A stretch of 64,000 bases of DNA from Corallococcus sp. EGB. Its GTDB lineage: Bacteria; Myxococcota; Myxococcia; Myxococcales; Myxococcaceae. The notes beneath the pieces are model-generated. The model saw only the letters and a list, made by a program, of their open reading frames with translations. It was not told where the DNA came from and ran no database searches. Shown here piece by piece: positions 1 through 8,716 of the stretch; the first letter of the stretch is position 1; each line of letters opens with the position of its first letter. The position numbers and the translations under genes were made by a program. The DNA lies in NCBI RefSeq assembly GCF_019968905.1, contig NZ_CP079946.1, positions 5,793,356 to 5,857,355 on the forward strand, read 5' to 3'.

Positions 1-526
1 GACCGAGGTGCAGGCGCAGCGGGTCGTCCCGGAGACCGCTCCCGAAGCGGCACCGGCGGACGAGAACCGCGAGCGGGTGCTGCTGTGCCGCGCCGGCGCG
101 GAGGGTCGCGTGGCCATCCCGCTGTCGCGCGTCACGCGGCTGGAGGAGCTGCCCGCGTCGGACGTGGAGCGGCTGAGCGGAGGCATGGAGATGGCGCGCT
201 ACCACGGGCAGTTGCTGCCGCTGGTGCGCGTGGCCTCCGTGCTGGAGGCGAGGCCTGGGGCGACGGAACAGCTCGCGCGGAACGTGAAGCTCGCGCTGGA
301 CGACTCGCTCTCCGTCGTCGTCACCACGCACGCGGAGACGCGCGTGGGACTGGTGGTGGACGCCATCCTCGACGTCGCGGAGGTGGAGCTCGCGCTCCAG
401 CGGGAGACCCGCCGTCCGGGCGTGCTGGGGTCCATGGTGGTGCAGTCCCGCGCCACCGAGTTCCTGGACGTCGAGGGCACCGTTCGCGCCGTGCACCCGG
501 AGCTGCTGATGGGCGGTGCGCCATGA
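1..526 (+). CDS. cheA: Chemotaxis histidine kinase CheA, C-terminal fragment (CheW-like regulatory domain); 5' end lies outside window
   Basis: ORF 8..526 reads through the window start; CheW-like domain sequence ([25 protein letters not shown]...); TGA overlaps cheW ATG (ATGA); followed by cheW-mcp-cheB-cheR. Confidence 0.7.
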
Positions 527-1011
527 AGGGCTTCCACCAGCTGTGCTCGTTCCAGGTGGGCGACCAACTGTTCGGCCTGGACATCGAACGCGTGCAGGAG
601 ATCCTGATGCCGCCTCCGCTGACGCGCGTGCCCGGCGCGCCTCCGGAGGTCGCGGGGCTGCTCAACCTGCGTGGGCAGATCGTCCCCGCCATCGACCTGC
701 GGCGCCGGCTGGGCCTGCCCGAGGGCACGTCCCCCGCGGACGCGCCCCACGTCGTCCTGCGCGGCGACGAGGGCGCGGTGAGCTTCCGCGTGGATGCCAT
801 CGGCGACATCCTCCCCTTCGAGCCGTCGGCCCTGGCTCCGCTGCCGGACAACCTGCGCGGGCCCCTGCGCTCGTTGCTGTTGGGCGTCCATGCGCTGCCG
901 GACCGGCTGCTGCTCGTGTTGTCCGCGGACGCGGTGGTGGACGGGCTCTCGCCCGCATCCAGCGCCTCCGCCGCCCCTTCCTTCCCCTTGCGTTCCCAGG
1001 AGTCCCGCTGA
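523..1011 (+). CDS. cheW: Chemotaxis coupling protein CheW
   Basis: [28 protein letters not shown]... typical CheW domain; ATG at 523 in frame of ORF 85..1011; start overlaps upstream stop and stop overlaps downstream ATG (translational coupling). Confidence 0.85.
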
Positions 1012-3074
1012 TGGCACGCTCGACCGCGCCCGCCGTGAAAACCACCCCCTTCCAACGCCTGGGCGGCAAGGCCCCACTGACCGCCGCCGTGCAGAAGCTC
1101 TACGCGCGGGTGCTGGCGGATGCGCTGCTCAAGCCCCTCTTCCGCCGCGCGGACCTCGTCCAGGTGCAGCGCCGGATGGTCGCGTTCCTCACCCAGCTCC
1201 TGGGCGGTCCGGCCCTCTATCGCGGCCGGTCCCCGCGCGATGTGCACGCCGGCATGGAGCTCAAGCCCCATCACTTCGAGCGCGTCGCCGAGCACCTGGC
1301 CGCCGTGCTGGATGAGCTGGACGTGCCCGGCCCTGTCGCTCGAGAGGTGCTCGCGGCCCTGGGCACGATTCAAGGCGACGCCGTGAGCAAGCGCGCCCCG
1401 GCACGTGCCTCGCGGACGCAGGGGCGCCGCGTGGCCGCGACCCCAGTGCCCGCGGCCCGGTCCTCGCGCCGCCGGACGTCCACGCTGCTCGAGGGGGCGC
1501 TGAGCGAGGCGGTGCTGAACGCGGCGAGCGTCAACCTGTTCGTGCTGGACGAAGACCTGGCCATCCTCTTCTCGAACACGGCCTCCTCGGACGCCATCGA
1601 GCGCATCCATCAGGCGTCTGGTTTCAGCGGCGGCGTCGGGGATGCGGGCAGCGATTTCCTCGCCCACTTCGAGCACCAGCTGAGCCTGGAGGACGAGCGG
1701 CTGCGCGACCCCGAGGCGCTTCCGCACGAAGCCCACTTCGCCGTGGGCCCCACCCTGATCAAGGCGCGCATCGACGGCATCAAGGGCCGCGGCGGAGCGC
1801 TCACCGGATACGTGGCGACGTGGACGGACGTCACGGATCAGCAGCGCGCGGACACGGAGATGGCACGCCTCAGGGCCATGCTGGAGAACGCGCCCACCTG
1901 CGTGATGGTGGCCGACCTGGACCTGAAGATCGTCTACCTGAACCCGGCCTCTCGCCGGCTGTTGCAGCGCGTGGAGAAGCACCTGCCCGTCACCGCGGAC
2001 CGGGTGCTGGGCTCCCACATCGACGTCTTCCACCGCGACTCGACGTACCAGCGGAAGCTCCTGTCCAACGACAAGAACCTGCCGGTGCGCGCCAACATCC
2101 CCATCGGCCCGGAGACCGCGGACCTGTTGGTGACGGCGGTGTACGACGGCCAGGGGCGCTACCTGGGCCCCATGGTGACGTGGGAGCTGATCACCGAGAA
2201 GCTCGCCGTGCAGCAGCGCGAGAAGGACCTGGACTCCACCCTGCGCGGCATCTTCCAGGAGGTGACGCAGCACTCGCAGACGCTCGCGGCGGCGTCCCAG
2301 GAGCTGTCCAGCGTCAGCCAGCAGCTGGTGAGCAACGCGCAGGAGACCGCCGCGCAGGCAACCCAGGTGTCCGCCGGCGCGGAGCAGGTCAGCCGCAACG
2401 TGCAGAGCGTCGCGTCCGGCATGGAGGAGGTCAACGCGAACATCCGCGAGGTGGCACGCAACGCGAGCACCGCCGCCAAGGTCGCGGCCTCCGCGGTCAA
2501 GCTGGCGGACTCCACGTCCGCCGTCGTCGGCAAGCTGGGGGCGAGCAGCCAGGACATCGGCAAGGTCATCAAGGTCATCACCTCCATCGCGCAGCAGACC
2601 AACCTGCTCGCGCTCAACGCGACCATCGAGGCAGCCCGCGCGGGCGAGGCGGGCCGGGGCTTCGCGGTGGTGGCCAACGAGGTGAAGGAGCTGGCGCGCG
2701 AGACGGCCCGCGCCACCGAGGACATCGGCCAGAAGATCGGCAGCATCCAGGGCGACACCGAGGAGGTGGTCAACGCCATCCTCGAAATTGGCGCCACCAT
2801 CAGCCGCATCGACGAGCTGCAGACGTCCATCGCCTCCTCCGTGGAGGAGCAGACGGCCACGGCGGGAGAGATCCTCCGCAACGTGGGCGAGGCCGCCAAG
2901 GGCAGCCAGCAGATCTCCGAGAACATGGCCGCCGTGGCGGAGGCCGCGCGGAGCACCACCGAGGGCGCGGGCAGCACGCAGCGCTCCGCGGTGGAGCTGG
3001 CCCACATGGCGCAGTCGCTTCAGCGGCTGGTCGTGCAGGTGGACACGACAGACAAACAGGGACGGACGAAGTAG
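1011..3074 (+). CDS. Soluble methyl-accepting chemotaxis protein: N-terminal truncated (2/2) haemoglobin domain + two PAS domains + MCP signalling domain
   Basis: N-term [33 protein letters not shown]...[38 protein letters not shown] matches trHb signature (F..LGG, FL..GGP..Y.G, H..HF); no TM segments; C-term highly conserved MCP core [35 protein letters not shown]; ATG 1011 overlaps cheW TGA. Confidence 0.85.
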
Positions 3075-3111
3075 CGCGGGCGGAATCAGGGTCCAGGAGC
3101 CACGGCACGTG

Positions 3112-4638
3112 CGAACCGGATTGAAGCGGTGGTGGGAACTGGGCCAGGTGGCCCGCGCCTCCACGCGCCTGCGGCGGGAAGCCCTGCCCCAGGACGCGGA
3201 GCATGTGAGGCGTGAGCTGACCCGGAGGCTGTTGGGCTTGCGCGGCCTGCCGCAGAAGGTGGGGCAGGTGCTCACGCTCGCGGAGCTGGGCGAGGAGGCG
3301 CCGGGGTTCGGCTCGCTCGCGGAGGCGCCCTCCCCGCTCGCGCCGGAGGCCGCGCTGGCGGAGGTGTCCCGCCGGCTGGGCCGTCCGTGGCGGGAGGTCT
3401 TCGCCTCGCTGGACGGCCTGGGCATCGCCGCGTCGTTGGGGCAGGTGCACCGGGGCGTGCTGCACGACGGGCGCGCCGTGGCGGTGAAGCTGCGGCACCC
3501 GGGCATCGCGGAGGCCGTGCGGGATGATCTGCGCGCGCTGGGGCTGCTCGCCGCGCCGCTGGGTGGCTGGCGCGGGAAGTTGGACCTGTCCGCGTACCGC
3601 CACGAAGTCGCCCGGATGCTCCAGGGCGAGCTGGACTACCGCCTCGAGGCCCAGGCCCTGCGGGATGCGGGCACGCGCATGGCGGACGTGCCGGGCGTCG
3701 TCGTCCCCGCGCCCGTGGACGCGCTCACGCGGGAAGACCTGCTGGTGATGACCTGGGTGGACGGTGTGCCGCTCGCGGAGGGCTGGCGCTGGAGCGAGGC
3801 GGACCGCCGCGCGCTGTCCACGACACTGGTGCGCCTGCTCCTCCACGGCTGCTTCACCTGGGGCGCGCTCCATGCGGATCCGCATCCAGGCAACTACCGC
3901 GTGTCCCGGGGACCGGAGGGCCACGTCGTGCTGGGGGTGCTCGACTTCGGCTGCGTGAAGCCATTGCCGCCAGAGGTGGCCGCGGGCCTGGGGCGGTTGA
4001 TCGCGCTCCTCCGTTGCCCTGATTCCCCACCGCGTCCGGAACAGCTGTTGTCCGCGTGGGTGATGCTGGGGTTCACGCCGGAACTGCTGGAGCCCATGGC
4101 GGAGGCGCTGCCCGCCGTCAGCCGCGTGCTGCTGGAGCCATTCCTCCAGGACCGCCCCTTCCACGCGCGAGGCTGGCGGCTGGGAGCGCGGCTCACCGAG
4201 GCGCTGGGGCCGCACCGCTGGAACTTCCGCGCGGCGGGGCCGGCGTCGCTCCTGTACGTCCTGCGCGCGTTCCACGGGCTGGTGCGCCACCTGGACGTGC
4301 TGGACACGCCCATCGCCTGGGGGCCGCTGCTGGACGAGGCCCGCGCGCCGTCACTGCCACCGCCGCCGTCGCACTCCGAGGCGCGGGTGGAGGGCTCCGC
4401 GCGCTACCTGAAGGTCCGCGTGACGGAGGCCGGCAACACCCGCGTCGCGCTGACCTTCCGCGCGGACGTGACGGCGCACCTGGAGGACCTCCTGCCGGAG
4501 GACTTGCCCTCCCGGCTCGCGGCGCGAGGGCTCGATCCGGCAGGCATTGGCGCGGCGGCGGTCGCGGCGGGGCTGCGGCCGTCGGAGTTGTTCCACCTGG
4601 ACGAGGGCGACCGGCATGTCCGGGTCTGGCTCGAGTGA
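3112..4638 (+). CDS. ABC1/UbiB/ADCK-family atypical protein kinase
   Basis: AVKLRHPGIAEAVRDDLRALGL..., LVMTWVDGVPL, HADPHPGNYRV motifs typical of ABC1 atypical kinase domain; start codon uncertain (GTG 3112 / TTG 3124 / GTG 3151). Confidence 0.7.
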   Translation, partial: RTGLKRWWELGQVARASTRLRREALPQDAEHVRRELTRRLLGLRGLPQKVGQVLTLAELGEEAPGFGSLAEAPSPLAPEAALAEVSRRLGRPWREVFASLDGLGIAASLGQVHRGVLHDGRAVAVKLRHPGIAEAVRDDLRALGLLAAPLGGWRGKLDLSAYRHEVARMLQGELDYRLEAQALRDAGTRMADVPGVVVPAPVDALTREDLLVMTWVDGVPLAEGWRWSEADRRALSTTLVRLLLHGCFTWGALHADPHPGNYRVSRGPEGHVVLGVLDFGCVKPLPPEVAAGLGRLIALLRCPDSPPRPEQLLSAWVMLGFTPELLEPMAEALPAVSRVLLEPFLQDRPFHARGWRLGARLTEALGPHRWNFRAAGPASLLYVLRAFHGLVRHLDVLDTPIAWGPLLDEARAPSLPPPPSHSEARVEGSARYLKVRVTEAGNTRVALTFRADVTAHLEDLLPEDLPSRLAARGLDPAGIGAAAVAAGLRPSELFHLDEGDRHVRVWLE

Positions 4639-4660: not shown

Positions 4661-4996
4661 ATGGTCACCATCGGCATGAACTATGAGGTGCGTGAGGGCA
4701 AGGCGGACGCCTTCGAGCGGAAGTTCGCGCTCGTGCAGGAGGCGATGCGCAAGCTGCCCGAGCACGCGCACACGGAGCTGTTCCGGAGCGTGGGAGCGCC
4801 AGGGCGCTACCTCATCGTCTCGGAATGGCAAAGCCGCGAGGGCTTCGACGCCTTCATCGCGTCCGAGCCCTTCCACCGCGTGACGGACTGGGGGGCGAGC
4901 GCCATCCTCGCGAGCCGGCCGCGCCACGAGGTGTATGGCGAGTCAGCCGCCAGCGCCCCCACGGGCCGCTGTCCGGTCGCGCACGCGGCGCGGTGA
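4661..4996 (+). CDS. Antibiotic-biosynthesis-monooxygenase (ABM) domain protein
   Basis: MVTIGMNYEVREGKADAFERKF...LIVSEWQSREGFDAFIASEPF - ABM/Dabb ferredoxin-like fold signature; ~111 aa. Confidence 0.7.
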   Translation: MVTIGMNYEVREGKADAFERKFALVQEAMRKLPEHAHTELFRSVGAPGRYLIVSEWQSREGFDAFIASEPFHRVTDWGASAILASRPRHEVYGESAASAPTGRCPVAHAAR

Positions 4997-5007: not shown

Positions 5008-6078
5008 ATGAACGCCATCCGGGTCCTGGTGGTGGACGACGCGGCCGTGGTGCGGCGTCAGGTGTCGCTGCTGCTGGGCACGGACCCGGGCCTGGAGGTC
5101 GTCGCCACCGCGCCCAACGGGCGCATCGCGTTGGCGAAGGTGGAGCAGTTCCAGCCGGACGTGGTGCTGCTGGACCTGGAGATGCCGGAGCTGGACGGGC
5201 TGGAGACGCTCAAGCTCCTGCGCCAGCGCGCCCCGGAGCTGCCGGTGGTGATGTTCAGCGCGCTCACTGAACGCGCGGGCGTGCTGACCCTGGAGGCGCT
5301 CGCGCTGGGCGCACGCGACTACGTGACGAAGCCCACGTCCGCGGGCGGGATGAACGTCACCGTGGAGGCCGTGCGGGACGAGCTGGTGCGCAAGCTCAAG
5401 GCGCTCCACGTCCGCACGCCGCCCTGCGCGCCCATCGTCGCTCCAGTGCCTCGCGAATCCCTGCTCCGGCCACGGGCGCCCGCGCGGGTGGAGGTCATCG
5501 TCATCGGGGCTTCGACCGGAGGCCCGGGCGCGCTGGTGCGCGTGGTGTCCGCGCTGCCCGCGGGCCTGCCGGTGCCAGTGCTCATCGTGCAGCACATGCC
5601 GCCCCTCTTCACGCGGCTGCTCGCGGAGCGGTTGCAGGGCGTCACCCCGCTCACCGTGCGCGAGGCGGTGAGCGGCGCGTCCGTGCGGGCGGGCGAGGTG
5701 TGGGTCGCGCCCGGGGACTTCCACTTGGCCGTCTGCCGGGACGCGACGGGCGTGCGGCTCTTCACGCATCAGGGGCCGGCGGAGAACGCGTGCCGTCCGG
5801 CGGTGGACCTGCTCTTCCGCTCCGCGGCGGAGGTGTACGGCGCGGGAGTGCTCGCGGTGGTGCTCACGGGCATGGGCCAGGACGGGCTGCGCGGCTGCCG
5901 GCGGGTGAACGAGGCGGGCGGTCAGGTGGTGGTGCAGGACCAGGCCAGCTGCGTCATCGGCAGCATGCCGGGCGCGGTGGAGCAGGCGGGGCTCGCGGAC
6001 GCGGTGGTGTCGCTGGACGCGCTGGCCCCGGAGCTGGCGCGGCGCGTGGACGCGCGCGGACGGAGGACCGGAGCATGA
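5008..6078 (+). CDS. cheB: Chemotaxis response regulator protein-glutamate methylesterase CheB
   Basis: N-terminal receiver domain (IRVLVVDDAAVVRR...LLDLEMPELDGLETLK) + methylesterase domain (VIVIGASTGGPGAL, GMGQDG); stop overlaps cheR ATG. Confidence 0.9.
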   Translation: MNAIRVLVVDDAAVVRRQVSLLLGTDPGLEVVATAPNGRIALAKVEQFQPDVVLLDLEMPELDGLETLKLLRQRAPELPVVMFSALTERAGVLTLEALALGARDYVTKPTSAGGMNVTVEAVRDELVRKLKALHVRTPPCAPIVAPVPRESLLRPRAPARVEVIVIGASTGGPGALVRVVSALPAGLPVPVLIVQHMPPLFTRLLAERLQGVTPLTVREAVSGASVRAGEVWVAPGDFHLAVCRDATGVRLFTHQGPAENACRPAVDLLFRSAAEVYGAGVLAVVLTGMGQDGLRGCRRVNEAGGQVVVQDQASCVIGSMPGAVEQAGLADAVVSLDALAPELARRVDARGRRTGA

Positions 6079-6971
6079 CGCTTCATCCCGACGACTTCGC
6101 GTACCTGCGGCAGCGCGTGTTGCGCCGCTCCGGGCTCGTGCTGGAGCCCGACACGCACGCCCTGGTGGAGGCGCGCCTCACGCCCCTCCTGCGCGAGGAG
6201 CGGCTGCCGGACCTGCCCGCCCTCGTGTCGCGTTTGCGCTCGCAGCCCGAGGGCAGCCCGCTCCATCAACGCGTGGCGGAGGCGTTGGCCAACCACGAGA
6301 CGGCCTTCTTCCGAGACACCCCTGTCTTCGAGGCCCTGCGCACCACCGCGCTGCCCGCCCTGCTGGCGAAGCGCGTCCGCACGCGGACCCTGCGCATCTG
6401 GTGCGCGGCGTGCGCCTACGGCCAGGAGCCCTACAGCGTGGCCATGACGCTGGCCGAGGCCGGGCTGCTCATCACCGGCTGGACCGTGCGCATCCTCGCC
6501 ACCGACTTCTCCACCCGCGCGCTCGTGCGTGCCTGCGAGGCCCGCTACGACGCGAAGGAGATCCACCGGGGCCTGCCCTCCGAGCTGCGTCAGCGCTACT
6601 TCCGCCCGGAGCGCGACGGGTGGCGGCTGAACGACCAGGTTCGCAAGCCGGTGGAGTTCCGGCCGCTCAACCTGCTGGACGACTTCTCCATGGAAGCGCC
6701 CATGGACCTCATCTTCCTGCGCAACGTGATGATCTACTGGGACGTGCCCACCCGGCGCGCGGTGCTCGCCCGCGTGCGGCGGATGCTCCACCAGGACGGC
6801 TTCCTGGTGCTGGGCGCCGCGGAGGCCTCGCCCCTGGTGGAGGACGGCTTCACGCGGCACCTGCTGGGACAGACGAGCTGGTACCGCCCCGCGCCCGTCC
6901 CGCCCCATGCCGGCGCGGGCGCCCCCGTGAAGGAAGCGCCGCGCCCTCCGCGCTCCGGCGCTACACCTTGA
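6075..6971 (+). CDS. cheR: Chemotaxis protein methyltransferase CheR
   Basis: ETAFFRDTPVFEAL, RIWCAACAYGQEPYSVAM, DLIFLRNVMIYWD - CheR SAM-dependent MTase motifs. Confidence 0.9.
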   Translation: MTLHPDDFAYLRQRVLRRSGLVLEPDTHALVEARLTPLLREERLPDLPALVSRLRSQPEGSPLHQRVAEALANHETAFFRDTPVFEALRTTALPALLAKRVRTRTLRIWCAACAYGQEPYSVAMTLAEAGLLITGWTVRILATDFSTRALVRACEARYDAKEIHRGLPSELRQRYFRPERDGWRLNDQVRKPVEFRPLNLLDDFSMEAPMDLIFLRNVMIYWDVPTRRAVLARVRRMLHQDGFLVLGAAEASPLVEDGFTRHLLGQTSWYRPAPVPPHAGAGAPVKEAPRPPRSGATP

Positions 6972-7881
6972 GGCGGATGGCGCCGGGGAGCAGCGTCATG
7001 CGGCAGGGCAGCCTGCCCGGCGTCTCACCGTCCACGTCCAGGAACACGTCACCCGTCAAGGGCTCCGCATGGAGCGTGCGGCAGCGCAGCCGCCGCGTGC
7101 CCTTCCAGGTGACGTGGTCGCCGTTGTAGACGCCCTTCGACTTGAGGACGAAGTCGGACAGGCCGTAGTTGGACCAGATGGTGACGTCGAAGAGGCCGTC
7201 GTGCGTCACCGCCTCGGGCGCCACGAACATGCCGCTTCCGAAGTAGCGGCCGTTGGCCACGGCGATCGCGGTGACGCTCACCGTCTCCGGCTCGCCGCCG
7301 TCCACCGTGATGCGCACCTGCTGCTCCTGGTACTTCAAGAGGCCCTTCACGGTGCCCCACATGAAGCTCAGGTTGCCGCCGAGCGCCTTGCTGCCCTGGT
7401 TCACCTCGCGGGCCACCACCGCGCTCACGCCGAACGAGGCGATGTTCGCGAAGAAGCGGGTGGCCGGCTTGCCGTCGTTGTCGGTGAACTCCAGCCGCCC
7501 CACGTCGAAGGGCTCGGTCGTCTCCGAGCGCAGGCGCTCCAGCGCGGACGTCAGCTCCAGGTCCCACCCGAAGGTGCGCCGGAAGTCGCCGCCCGTGCCC
7601 CGGGGCAACAGCCCCAGCGTGGCCTGGGGGTTGATGACCTGGCCGTCGCGGAAGAAGCCGTTGGTGACTTCATTGAGGGTGCCGTCTCCGCCCACCGCGA
7701 CGATGCACTCATAGCCATCGTCGATGGCCTGCCGCGCCAGACGCGCCGCATCCATGCCGCCGCTGGTGAAGCCGTACCCGAAGTCGCCGAGCACCTTGCC
7801 CACCTGCGCGGAGATCTCCACCCATCGCTTCCCCGTCTGCCCGTTGGCGCTGCGCGGGTTGACCACGAGGAACGTCTTCAT
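6961..7881 (-). CDS. Diacylglycerol/lipid kinase catalytic-domain protein (YegS/BmrU family)
   Basis: MKTFLVVNPRSANGQTG...CIVAVGGDGTLNEVTNGF...GLLPRGTGGDF - DAGK_cat signature; 3' end overlaps cheR 3' end convergently by 11 bp. Confidence 0.8.
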   Translation of the reverse strand: MKTFLVVNPRSANGQTGKRWVEISAQVGKVLGDFGYGFTSGGMDAARLARQAIDDGYECIVAVGGDGTLNEVTNGFFRDGQVINPQATLGLLPRGTGGDFRRTFGWDLELTSALERLRSETTEPFDVGRLEFTDNDGKPATRFFANIASFGVSAVVAREVNQGSKALGGNLSFMWGTVKGLLKYQEQQVRITVDGGEPETVSVTAIAVANGRYFGSGMFVAPEAVTHDGLFDVTIWSNYGLSDFVLKSKGVYNGDHVTWKGTRRLRCRTLHAEPLTGDVFLDVDGETPGRLPCRMTLLPGAIRLKV

Positions 7882-7957
7882 TCAGTACCTTCTCCCTGCT
7901 GCGAGAACGGCCTGTTTACGCAATTGTTTGCCGGGGCTCCACTCCAGGACCCACAAG

Positions 7958-8716
7958 ATGACCCGTTTGACCGGGGTGTTTGTCACCCAAACCGGTCCAT
8001 GGTGGGCTTCCCAACCCTCTCCGCGCCCTGGACCCCGAGTGAAAGGCCCGCCCCCCACCGAGCAGCTCGCGCCCCACCGCGAGGCCACCCGCGCCCTGGA
8101 CTGGGCACTGCCCGCGCTCCGGTGGGACCTGGAGGCCGCGGCGCGGCAGGCCTTCCGGGAGACGGGCGCCCAGGAGGACTTCCTGCTCCGCCATGACGCA
8201 CCGGCCCATGAAGCCCAGGGGCCGGCGCGGACGGAGCGCTTCGAGCGGGCCCTCGCCCGGGTCCGGCGCCTCGCGGACGCCGGTGAGCCGCTGACCTTCA
8301 CCGGGATGGTGGAGGTCCAGTCGATGCTGCTGGGCGGTCCCACGGGCTTCCGCACTGGCGACGCCTTCGCGAGGAGTGGCGCGCACCGGTACGCGCACAC
8401 GCCCGGCCTGGAGGCGGCGTTCCGCGAGAAGGTGGAGTCGGAAGCGCGGGAGCAGCGCCATCCGGTGGCGCACGCCACGCGGTTGTACCTGGACCTGTGT
8501 TTCTTCCACCCCTTCCCGGACGGAAACGCCCGAGCGGCGCGGCTGTGGCTGGAATACATGCTGCGGCGGGGCCGCCTGCCCACCCCGCCCCTGGTCCCGG
8601 TGGTCCTGTGGCGCAAGAACCCGGGAGACGCGGTGAACTACACGCGGCTGGCCCGGCTGCTGGCCCGGAGCATCGCGGGGCCTGACGCGCCGTGCCGCAA
8701 CGAGGTGCCGGGATGA
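7958..8716 (+). CDS. Fic/Doc-family protein (putative AMPylating enzyme)
   Basis: Fic core motif FHPFPDGNARAARL (HxFx(D/E)GNxR); start assigned to ATG 7958 (alternatives downstream). Confidence 0.7.
   Translation: MTRLTGVFVTQTGPWWASQPSPRPGPRVKGPPPTEQLAPHREATRALDWALPALRWDLEAAARQAFRETGAQEDFLLRHDAPAHEAQGPARTERFERALARVRRLADAGEPLTFTGMVEVQSMLLGGPTGFRTGDAFARSGAHRYAHTPGLEAAFREKVESEAREQRHPVAHATRLYLDLCFFHPFPDGNARAARLWLEYMLRRGRLPTPPLVPVVLWRKNPGDAVNYTRLARLLARSIAGPDAPCRNEVPG

Follow-up and report, generated by a model that had tools for sequence, protein, structure and literature searches.

What does a globin contribute when it stands at the head of a chemoreceptor? The question is raised by the gene mcp of Corallococcus sp. 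EGB, which lies near the start of the DNA analysed here (64,000 nucleotides of contig NZ_CP079946.1, positions 5,793,356 to 5,857,355, G+C content ~70%; hereafter the window) and whose intact open reading frame (ORF) encodes a methyl-accepting chemotaxis protein (MCP) of 687 amino acids (aa). The protein begins with a truncated haemoglobin (trHb), which is followed by two PAS domains and a signalling hairpin, and a preliminary description of the sequence had taken the trHb to be its sensor. On balance, and with moderate confidence, we favour a different arrangement: a cytoplasmic chemoreceptor with two chemically different haem sites, in which the second PAS domain (PAS2) would transmit the signal, the first (PAS1) would act as a haem-less relay and the trHb would be a tethered accessory.

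Domain composition of the receptor

The start of mcp is well defined. Its ATG (1011–1013) shares one base with the TGA of cheW (TGATG), to which the gene is translationally coupled, and the N terminus is kept as MAR..AP.VK in the alignment of all Corallococcus orthologues; together with the ribosome-binding site, these features bear out the boundaries first proposed for the gene. Within the encoded protein, Pfam places Bac_globin (PF01152) at aa 14–118 (E=3.4e-17, with a score of 63 bits where the cutoff is 21). A sequence search of the PDB ranks group I truncated haemoglobins first, with Tetrahymena 3aq5 aligning without gaps over aa 12–118 (E=8.5e-20) and Mycobacterium tuberculosis HbN matching at E ~4e-16; characterised chains of group I (those of Tetrahymena and Chlamydomonas, M. 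tuberculosis HbN and cyanoglobins) span E=1e-20 to 1e-13 and those of group II lie at E=1e-10 or weaker, and Foldseek ranks the groups alike. An AlphaFold2 (AF2) model of aa 1–130, built from an alignment of 34 fused globins (predicted local distance difference test, pLDDT, of 84.9), has the 2-on-2 helical fold and, compared with the PDB by Foldseek, matches HbN with template-modelling (TM) scores of 0.83–0.86 and a root-mean-square deviation of 1.1–1.2 Å, and 3aq5 with a TMt of 0.91. Sequence and model together assign the domain to group I rather than to group II or III.

Alignment to 3aq5 identifies Tyr31 (nt 1101–1103) as residue B10, Phe44 as CD1 and His79 (nt 1245–1247) as the proximal histidine F8. 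These three residues are invariant in all 60 globin domains of related fusion proteins that we compared, and the two Gly-Gly motifs (Gly18-Gly19, within FQRLGG, and Gly65-Gly66) are kept in 58–59 of them. On the distal side, the same alignment equates Val52 with E7 and Met56 with E11, so that neither position supplies the polar, ligand-stabilising Gln of this class. The fused relatives resemble HbN here, with Leu at E7 in 51 of the 60 and mostly Gln at E11, a position occupied by Met in the Corallococcus clade. The query also carries Pro13 (nt 1047–1049) where 51 of the 60 fused globins have Leu.

A stretch of about 40 residues, modelled with pLDDT below 50, separates the globin from PAS1. Over aa 121–162 it contains nine Arg and has a net charge of +8, and in every Corallococcus orthologue the linker is Arg-rich with a net charge of +7 to +12. 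The linkers of other lineages tend to be neutral or acidic (net −5 to +5, with no more than three above zero), and linker length varies from 23 to 98 aa among relatives. Myxococcus xanthus FrzCD binds the nucleoid through a basic N-terminal tail (PMC5716589), and by analogy it is possible that the basic linker of Corallococcus provides a similar anchor.

The two PAS domains, as judged from their sequences, are both of the Aer2 type. Pfam reports only a generic PAS match at aa 285–390; the full-length AF2 model contains two PAS folds, and among NCBIfam models the protein as a whole is matched best by the Vibrio Aer2 aerotaxis transducer (aa 163–414), with a score for the Aer2 equivalog NF041847 (190 bits against a cutoff of 1200) that leaves the protein outside that equivalog. 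In the PDB, aa 281–405 match the haem PAS of Pseudomonas aeruginosa Aer2 (3vol, E=7.8e-15; 4hi4, E=8.8e-14) and a PAS chain of a methyl-accepting chemotaxis protein, 6ceq (E=3.4e-12), which is probably Vibrio cholerae Aer2. The hallmarks of Aer2 PAS domains are a haem-ligating Eη His, an Iβ Trp that hydrogen-bonds O2 and a C-terminal DxT motif (PMC10107281). In PAS2, His341 (nt 2031–2033; IDVFHRD, aligned with IDVFHKN of P. aeruginosa Aer2), the Hβ residue Leu372, the Iβ residue Trp391 and Thr395 are each invariant in all 41 aligned family members, and the haem-ligand motif FH(K/R)(N/D)xxxQR is present; the haem and O2 signature is complete in this domain. PAS1 retains an invariant Trp271 and the motif D273-V-T275, and has Glu221 (nt 1671–1673) at the position of the haem ligand. 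This Glu is shared by the query and 17 of 17 Corallococcus orthologues, and His stands there in 24 of 24 non-Corallococcus relatives. Because Glu221 replaces the ligand and neither His219 nor His222 next to it is invariant, the haem of PAS1 has probably been lost in Corallococcus. The full signature of PAS2 makes it the more likely signalling sensor, ahead of the globin.

The C-terminal half of the protein is that of a conventional MCP. Pfam MCPsignal (PF00015) matches aa 484–645 (E=3e-32), and the hairpin tip, conserved in MCPs of the PDB, together with the CheW, CheA, CheR and CheB partners encoded in the operon, identifies the protein as a chemoreceptor. In a comparison bearing on the 36-heptad kinase-control module that gammaproteobacterial Aer2 receptors have in F7-class Che clusters, the signalling domain matches residues 267–511 of Escherichia coli Tsr over a span of similar length (aa 32–279 in the numbering of that search). 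Two candidate methylation motifs, SQQLVS (~aa 437–442) and VEEQTAT (Glu612/Glu613), are suggested by their match to the E. coli consensus. The full-length AF2 model (pLDDT 76, predicted TM score, pTM, of 0.33) lays the protein out as globin (aa 13–124), the low-confidence segment with pLDDT below 50 (aa 121–162), PAS1 (aa 163–273), a connecting helix (aa 275–292), PAS2 (aa 297–393) and a long helical hairpin (aa 412–686), with the exit helix of PAS2 (aa 395–406) passing through a short low-confidence stretch (aa 402–412) into the hairpin. No transmembrane segment was found in the 687 residues, where the highest 19-residue Kyte-Doolittle mean is 1.37. The E-values of the matches that define the domains lie far outside what chance would give.

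Much of the preliminary description withstands this scrutiny: the N-terminal domain is placed among the 2-on-2 group I globins by Pfam, the PDB sequence search and the AF2 and Foldseek comparison alike, the three trHb motifs it quoted are real (the third begins at His79), a proximal histidine is present, and it was right to describe a soluble protein with two PAS domains and a canonical MCP signalling domain.

Relatives of the fusion and constraint on the globin

To what extent is the globin tied to the rest of the receptor? In an architecture survey of the 120 closest protein clusters or homologues, the globin is carried by 63 and the PAS-MCP core stands without it in 57. The commonest arrangements are globin-PAS-PAS-MCP (45 clusters) and PAS-PAS-MCP or PAS-PAS-PAS-MCP with no globin (51), followed by globin-PAS-PAS-PAS-MCP (12); one cluster has two globins (P0018), one a C-terminal globin (P0075) and one a hemerythrin (PF01814) in place of the globin (P0103). 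There are up to seven PAS domains per protein. Likewise, of 80 genomic relatives, at least 18 keep this PAS-MCP core but have no globin. Tandem trHb units, two to four of them, precede PAS-MCP in some relatives, including P0018, P0163 and P0252, and three or four globins occur in proteins of a representative library. This library also contains proteins with many trHb units in tandem, up to 14 in the 1,882-aa P0122, and in a search of that library with the fused-globin profile such tandem proteins outrank all single-globin ones.

The fusion is widespread. A distribution scan with one genome per species returned 469 related loci, and in the best 80 of these, from which architectures and neighbours were read, the globin is fused ahead of PAS-MCP in 61. 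Nine of the 61 belong to Corallococcus or other Myxococcaceae; the remaining 52 come from Acidobacteriota, Planctomycetota, Nitrospirales, Bdellovibrionota and other Myxococcota, as well as from Verrucomicrobiota, Elusimicrobia, Thermodesulfobacteriota, Rhodothermaeota and Spirochaetaceae. The trHb-PAS-MCP fusion thus occurs in at least 61 species-level genomes from many phyla. A contig labelled as a Bifidobacterium breve metagenome-assembled genome (CALQBJ020000127.1, locus L068) carries a cluster of CheW, trHb-PAS-MCP, CheB and CheR genes and is probably mis-binned.

The nearest relatives of mcp all come from Corallococcus, a genus of the Myxococcota. Within the genus, the window protein shares 78–87% identity with full-length Corallococcus orthologues, and its first 400 aa are 81–84% identical to the best species-representative matches (81% to C. 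coralloides KYC2213). Median ratios of non-synonymous to synonymous substitution (dN/dS) within Corallococcus rise from the MCP domain (0.16) and PAS2 (0.24) to the globin (0.41), the linker (0.46) and PAS1 (0.63). Moreover, three Corallococcus assemblies (loci L001–L003) carry a natural deletion: homology to the window starts at nt 1841, the boundary between PAS1 and PAS2, and cheA, cheW, the trHb and PAS1 are gone, with a gene for a PAS-GerE regulator upstream in their place. These genomes keep an intact 404-aa PAS2-MCP protein (P0025, 96% identity) together with the ABC1, ABM, cheB and cheR genes.

Proposed mechanism, operon and alternative readings

From these features we infer a dual-haem receptor for O2 or nitric oxide (NO). 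In the mechanism that we favour, PAS2, which sits directly on the kinase-control hairpin, would bind haem b by means of its ligand His, with the Leu plugging the pocket and the Trp bonding O2; gas binding there would drive a conformational signal by which, via CheW, the activity of CheA is set, and CheR and CheB would provide adaptation. PAS1, having lost its haem ligand in Corallococcus, would remain as a structural or relay domain. The N-terminal trHb would bind haem via His79 in an HbN-type pocket with Tyr at B10 and, instead of transmitting in line, would tune what the PAS2 sensor reports. It might do so through HbN-like O2/NO chemistry beside the sensor, as an NO dioxygenase or a ligand filter, or through ligand- or redox-dependent docking onto the PAS module.

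The globin looks like a tethered accessory and not an in-line sensor because the linker is disordered and variable in length, because close relatives lack, multiply or relocate the globin, because selective constraint on it is weaker and because natural deletion variants exist. Proximity to the PAS module seems to matter more than in-line coupling, since the C-terminal globin of P0075 would still adjoin the PAS domains, where both ends of the MCP hairpin meet. In M. tuberculosis HbN, the pocket with Tyr B10, Leu E7 and Gln E11 goes with very high O2 affinity and NO-dioxygenase activity; since most fused globins have such a pocket, we lean slightly, and speculatively, towards local O2/NO chemistry, or NO or redox sensing, rather than towards a globin that senses O2 reversibly.

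Several observations weigh against this reading of the receptor. In PAS2 the DxT position reads L393-I-T395, with the Thr kept and the Asp replaced. No HAMP domain is matched by Pfam between PAS2 and the hairpin, unlike in characterised Aer2 receptors, and the monomeric AF2 model, with its low pTM, is uninformative on contacts between domains. The globin of the query also departs from its relatives at several sites: Pro75 (nt 1233–1235), four residues before His79, replaces a Met found in 58 of 60, Val52 at E7 (nt 1164–1166) is nearly unique, and at E11 a Met takes the place of the Gln of most relatives. Given these substitutions, ligand stabilisation and even haem affinity could differ in this protein. 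Finally, relaxed constraint and deletion variants fit decay as well as they fit an accessory role.

The alternative that fares best concerns the output of the pathway. It holds that the system is a Che-like pathway serving neither aerotaxis nor motility but, for example, quinone or lipid metabolism, with the ABC1 kinase as effector and a gas or redox signal as input; we regard this as a real possibility, though short of an even chance. No CheY is encoded in the mcp gene cluster, and the 722-aa CheA found at the cheA position of the syntenic Corallococcus locus L007 (Hpt, dimerisation, HATPase and CheW domains) has no receiver domain. Corallococcus is a non-flagellated glider, and characterised systems that contain Aer2 exert no direct control of flagellar motility (PMC10107281). 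An ABC1/UbiB-family gene lies directly downstream of mcp in Corallococcus, and of the 52 fusion loci from other lineages 16 have an ABC1 gene no more than 6 kb away, which in 13 immediately follows the fusion gene (among them L005, L017, L018, L023, L028, L035, L040 and L043); L017, from an uncultured deltaproteobacterial genome, reproduces the whole order CheW-MCP-ABC1-ABM-CheB. The ABC1 kinase gene is thus a recurrent neighbour of trHb-MCP genes and may take part in the output. On the other hand, the ABC1 link is missing from about two thirds of the fusion loci, several relatives encode CheY and CheX within the cluster, and the proposal, being confined to the output, leaves room for the sensing mechanism set out above.

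Two further alternatives, each of which we consider unlikely, concern the globin itself. The first is the classical globin-coupled sensor, in which the trHb would be the primary O2 sensor and both PAS domains would merely relay its signal to the MCP domain. In its favour, the globin occupies the N terminus, as it does in HemAT, none of the 60 fusions varies at the haem-pocket residues, and the fusion has been kept in at least 61 species-level genomes; yet the disordered linker of ~23–98 aa parts it from PAS1, PAS2 has a complete haem and O2 signature of its own and is the most conserved sensor domain, close relatives manage with no globin or have it C-terminally, and the very high O2 affinity typical of HbN-type pockets is poorly suited to reversible sensing. 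The statement in the preliminary description that the sensor is a trHb is not supported in this classical sense, given the disordered linker of ~40 aa between globin and PAS1; the two PAS domains that it rightly placed after the trHb are not neutral spacers, as both are of the Aer2 type by sequence and PAS2 has the full signature.

The second, raised among other hypotheses by Sharma et al. (PMC6194562), is that the trHb-PAS1 module of Corallococcus, or the whole cluster, is vestigial and decaying without a contribution to signalling. Loss of the PAS1 haem His, a PAS1 dN/dS above that of the disordered linker, the raised dN/dS of the globin, the Pro at an otherwise conserved Met position, the deletion of cheA, cheW, trHb and PAS1 in three assemblies and the lack of a CheY gene in the cluster (PMC6194562) would all fit such decay. 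Against it, an intact ORF is present in the window and in 10 further genomes from Corallococcus or Myxococcaceae, the residues at B10, CD1 and F8 do not vary, dN/dS stays well under 1, and translational coupling and operon order are conserved. A last proposal, that the PAS domains are redox sensors binding flavin adenine dinucleotide (FAD) as in E. coli Aer, draws on the generic nature of the Pfam matches and on the analogy made in the 2018 paper (PMC6194562), and we reject it as highly improbable, for the best solved relatives of PAS2 are haem-binding Aer2 domains (E=8e-15), the haem-ligand motif and Trp are present and the best NCBIfam model is Vibrio Aer2.

The features of the locus are collected in Table 1. 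Operon order and translational coupling are conserved, and the window is syntenic with Corallococcus loci L007–L016. The ABC1 protein scores 120 bits with the NCBIfam UbiB model, well under its cutoff of 487. The ABM-domain protein weakly resembles ABM proteins that degrade or bind haem (MhuD and HmoB, E~3e-4; HmuQ, E=8e-4) and the NCBIfam 'heme-binding protein' PRK09565 (E=2e-10), all of these matches lying far under their cutoffs; beside a putative haem receptor this is suggestive, a hint and not an established link. We do not claim it as an IsdG/MhuD-type haem oxygenase: the matches are weak, and in a manual alignment with MhuD, itself unverified, Phe takes the place of the second catalytic Trp and the His falls out of register. 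cheR is followed by a gene for a YegS/DAGK-type lipid kinase and by an ORF with the Fic-like motif HPFPDGNARAAR; the syntenic locus L007 has a Pfam Fic gene, and lipid kinase and Fic-like neighbours are common to all Corallococcus loci examined. Scans of window positions 1–64000 gave no tRNA genes and no Rfam matches at the gathering threshold.

Table 1. Features of the mcp locus, in window coordinates
Feature	Position (nt)	Strand	Residues or length (aa)	Basis
cheA, 3' end (P5, CheW-like domain); gene continues beyond the left window edge	2..526	+		Pfam CheW PF01584, E=5e-11
cheW	523..1011	+	162	Pfam CheW, E=1.7e-30; ATG overlaps cheA stop
Ribosome-binding site AGGAG, 8 nt 5' of mcp ATG	998..1002	+		Read from sequence
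mcp, predicted soluble trHbN-PAS1-PAS2-MCP chemoreceptor	1011..3074	+	687	Pfam, NCBIfam, homologues, AF2
Predicted group I truncated haemoglobin	1038..1385	+	10–125	Pfam, PDB sequence search, alignment, AF2, Foldseek
Disordered Arg-rich linker, ~40 aa	1386..1496 (aa 121–162 spans 1371–1496)	+	121–162	AF2 pLDDT <50 over aa 121–162
PAS1, predicted Aer2-like fold	1497..1841	+	163–277	NCBIfam Vibrio Aer2 model, alignments, AF2
PAS2, predicted Aer2-type PAS-haem domain	1863..2204	+	285–398	PDB matches, alignments
MCP signalling (kinase-control) hairpin	2244..3068	+	412–686	Pfam, AF2 continuous helical hairpin, PDB MCP matches
ABC1/UbiB-family atypical kinase gene	3109..4638	+	509	Pfam ABC1, E=2.8e-46
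ABM-domain protein gene	4661..4996	+	111	Pfam ABM, E=1.5e-14
cheB, receiver and methylesterase	5008..6078	+		Pfam
cheR, methyltransferase	6075..6971	+		Pfam
YegS/DAGK-type lipid kinase gene	6961..7881	−
ORF with Fic-like motif	7724..8716	+

Published precedent and comparison with known systems

How new is this receptor? The preliminary description had called the architecture rarely characterised or uncharacterised, which is apt in that no experimental work was found, but both architecture and operon had already been predicted in silico and published. Writing in BMC Genomics, Sharma, Parales and Singer (2018; PMC6194562) reported Cc_4972 (WP_014397685.1) of C. coralloides DSM 2259, a cytosolic protein with Bac_globin, PAS and MCPsignal domains, in the Cc-5 cluster, whose order is CheA-CheW-MCP(Bac_globin+PAS+MCPsignal)-ABC1-ABM-CheB-CheR, with a cytosolic MCP and no CheY. 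The window has the gene order and domains of Cc-5. Its protein is the same Bac_globin+PAS+MCPsignal cytosolic protein from the same genus, an orthologue from another strain or species whose sequence is not identical. The 2018 paper found the architecture in 7 of 8,075 genomes, counted one PAS domain, discussed it by analogy with the FAD-binding E. coli Aer and energy taxis via redox state, and recorded neither ABC1 nor ABM genes for related clusters (PMC6194562); both were found here beside fusion genes in other clusters. The words 'truncated' and 'Aer2' are absent from its text (PMC6194562). A 2026 aerotaxis review still describes the C. coralloides receptor as 'predicted through in silico analyses'. 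Full-text literature searches found no biochemical or experimental study of any trHb-MCP, and those pairing truncated haemoglobin or globin with chemoreceptor terms found no description of one, the 2018 paper surfacing through the combination Myxococcus, chemosensory and globin. What the present analysis adds is the group I assignment of the globin, the recognition of Aer2-type, putatively haem-binding PAS domains with a degenerate PAS1, the wide phyletic distribution and the recurrent ABC1 neighbour.

With the architecture already in the literature, the remaining value lies in experiment rather than in discovery. The physiological roles of bacterial trHbs are debated, and a trHb hard-wired to a signalling output would offer a direct read-out of globin action. 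The protein would be the first receptor with both a globin haem and a PAS haem, and could show how two haem sites that differ in affinity or reactivity are integrated. Since many phyla of soil and water contain the fusion (Acidobacteriota, Planctomycetota, Nitrospirota, Myxococcota and Verrucomicrobiota), it may represent a common mode of O2/NO sensing. A bolder extension, which we put forward as a long shot, is that trHb-PAS(haem)-MCP proteins form a widespread, unrecognised 'truncated-globin-coupled' class, in which a tethered HbN-like domain would be no allosteric input but an enzymatic or ligand-filter module (NO dioxygenase or O2 buffer) that conditions an adjacent Aer2-type haem sensor, and in which the pathway would signal to an ABC1/UbiB-type kinase instead of a CheY for motility. 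On this view the Arg-rich linker of Corallococcus might, in addition, fix the receptor array to the nucleoid in the manner of the FrzCD tail.

Set beside known systems, the receptor shares with HemAT and other globin-coupled sensors a predicted haem globin fused to an MCP output, solubility and a presumed role in gas sensing. It differs in that its globin is of the 2-on-2 PF01152 family rather than a 3-on-3 sensor globin or protoglobin, and in that globin and output are parted by a disordered linker plus two PAS domains where those sensors have a continuous helix. With the free-standing group I trHbs (M. tuberculosis HbN and Tetrahymena trHbN) the globin shares the fold (TM 0.83–0.91), the F8 His, B10 Tyr and CD1 Phe and both Gly-Gly motifs; it differs in its fusion to a signalling protein, in Val at E7 and Met at E11, and in the Pro that replaces the pre-F Met at position 75. 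The bacterial chimeric truncated globins listed in a 2020 review all belong to groups II and III (PMC7475203).

The receptor also resembles the Aer2 receptors of P. aeruginosa, V. cholerae and V. vulnificus, which are likewise soluble, carry between one and three PAS domains of this subfamily in tandem and are served by a dedicated Che cluster, and whose haem-ligand His, pocket Leu and O2-bonding Trp recur here. The window protein departs from them in having no HAMP between PAS and hairpin where they have a di-HAMP, LIT in place of DxT in PAS2, a PAS1 without the haem His and an additional N-terminal trHb. In Aer2 receptors the PAS domain nearest the C terminus is the transmitter and those upstream are modulators, an order matched by the transmitting PAS2 and relaying PAS1 proposed for Corallococcus.

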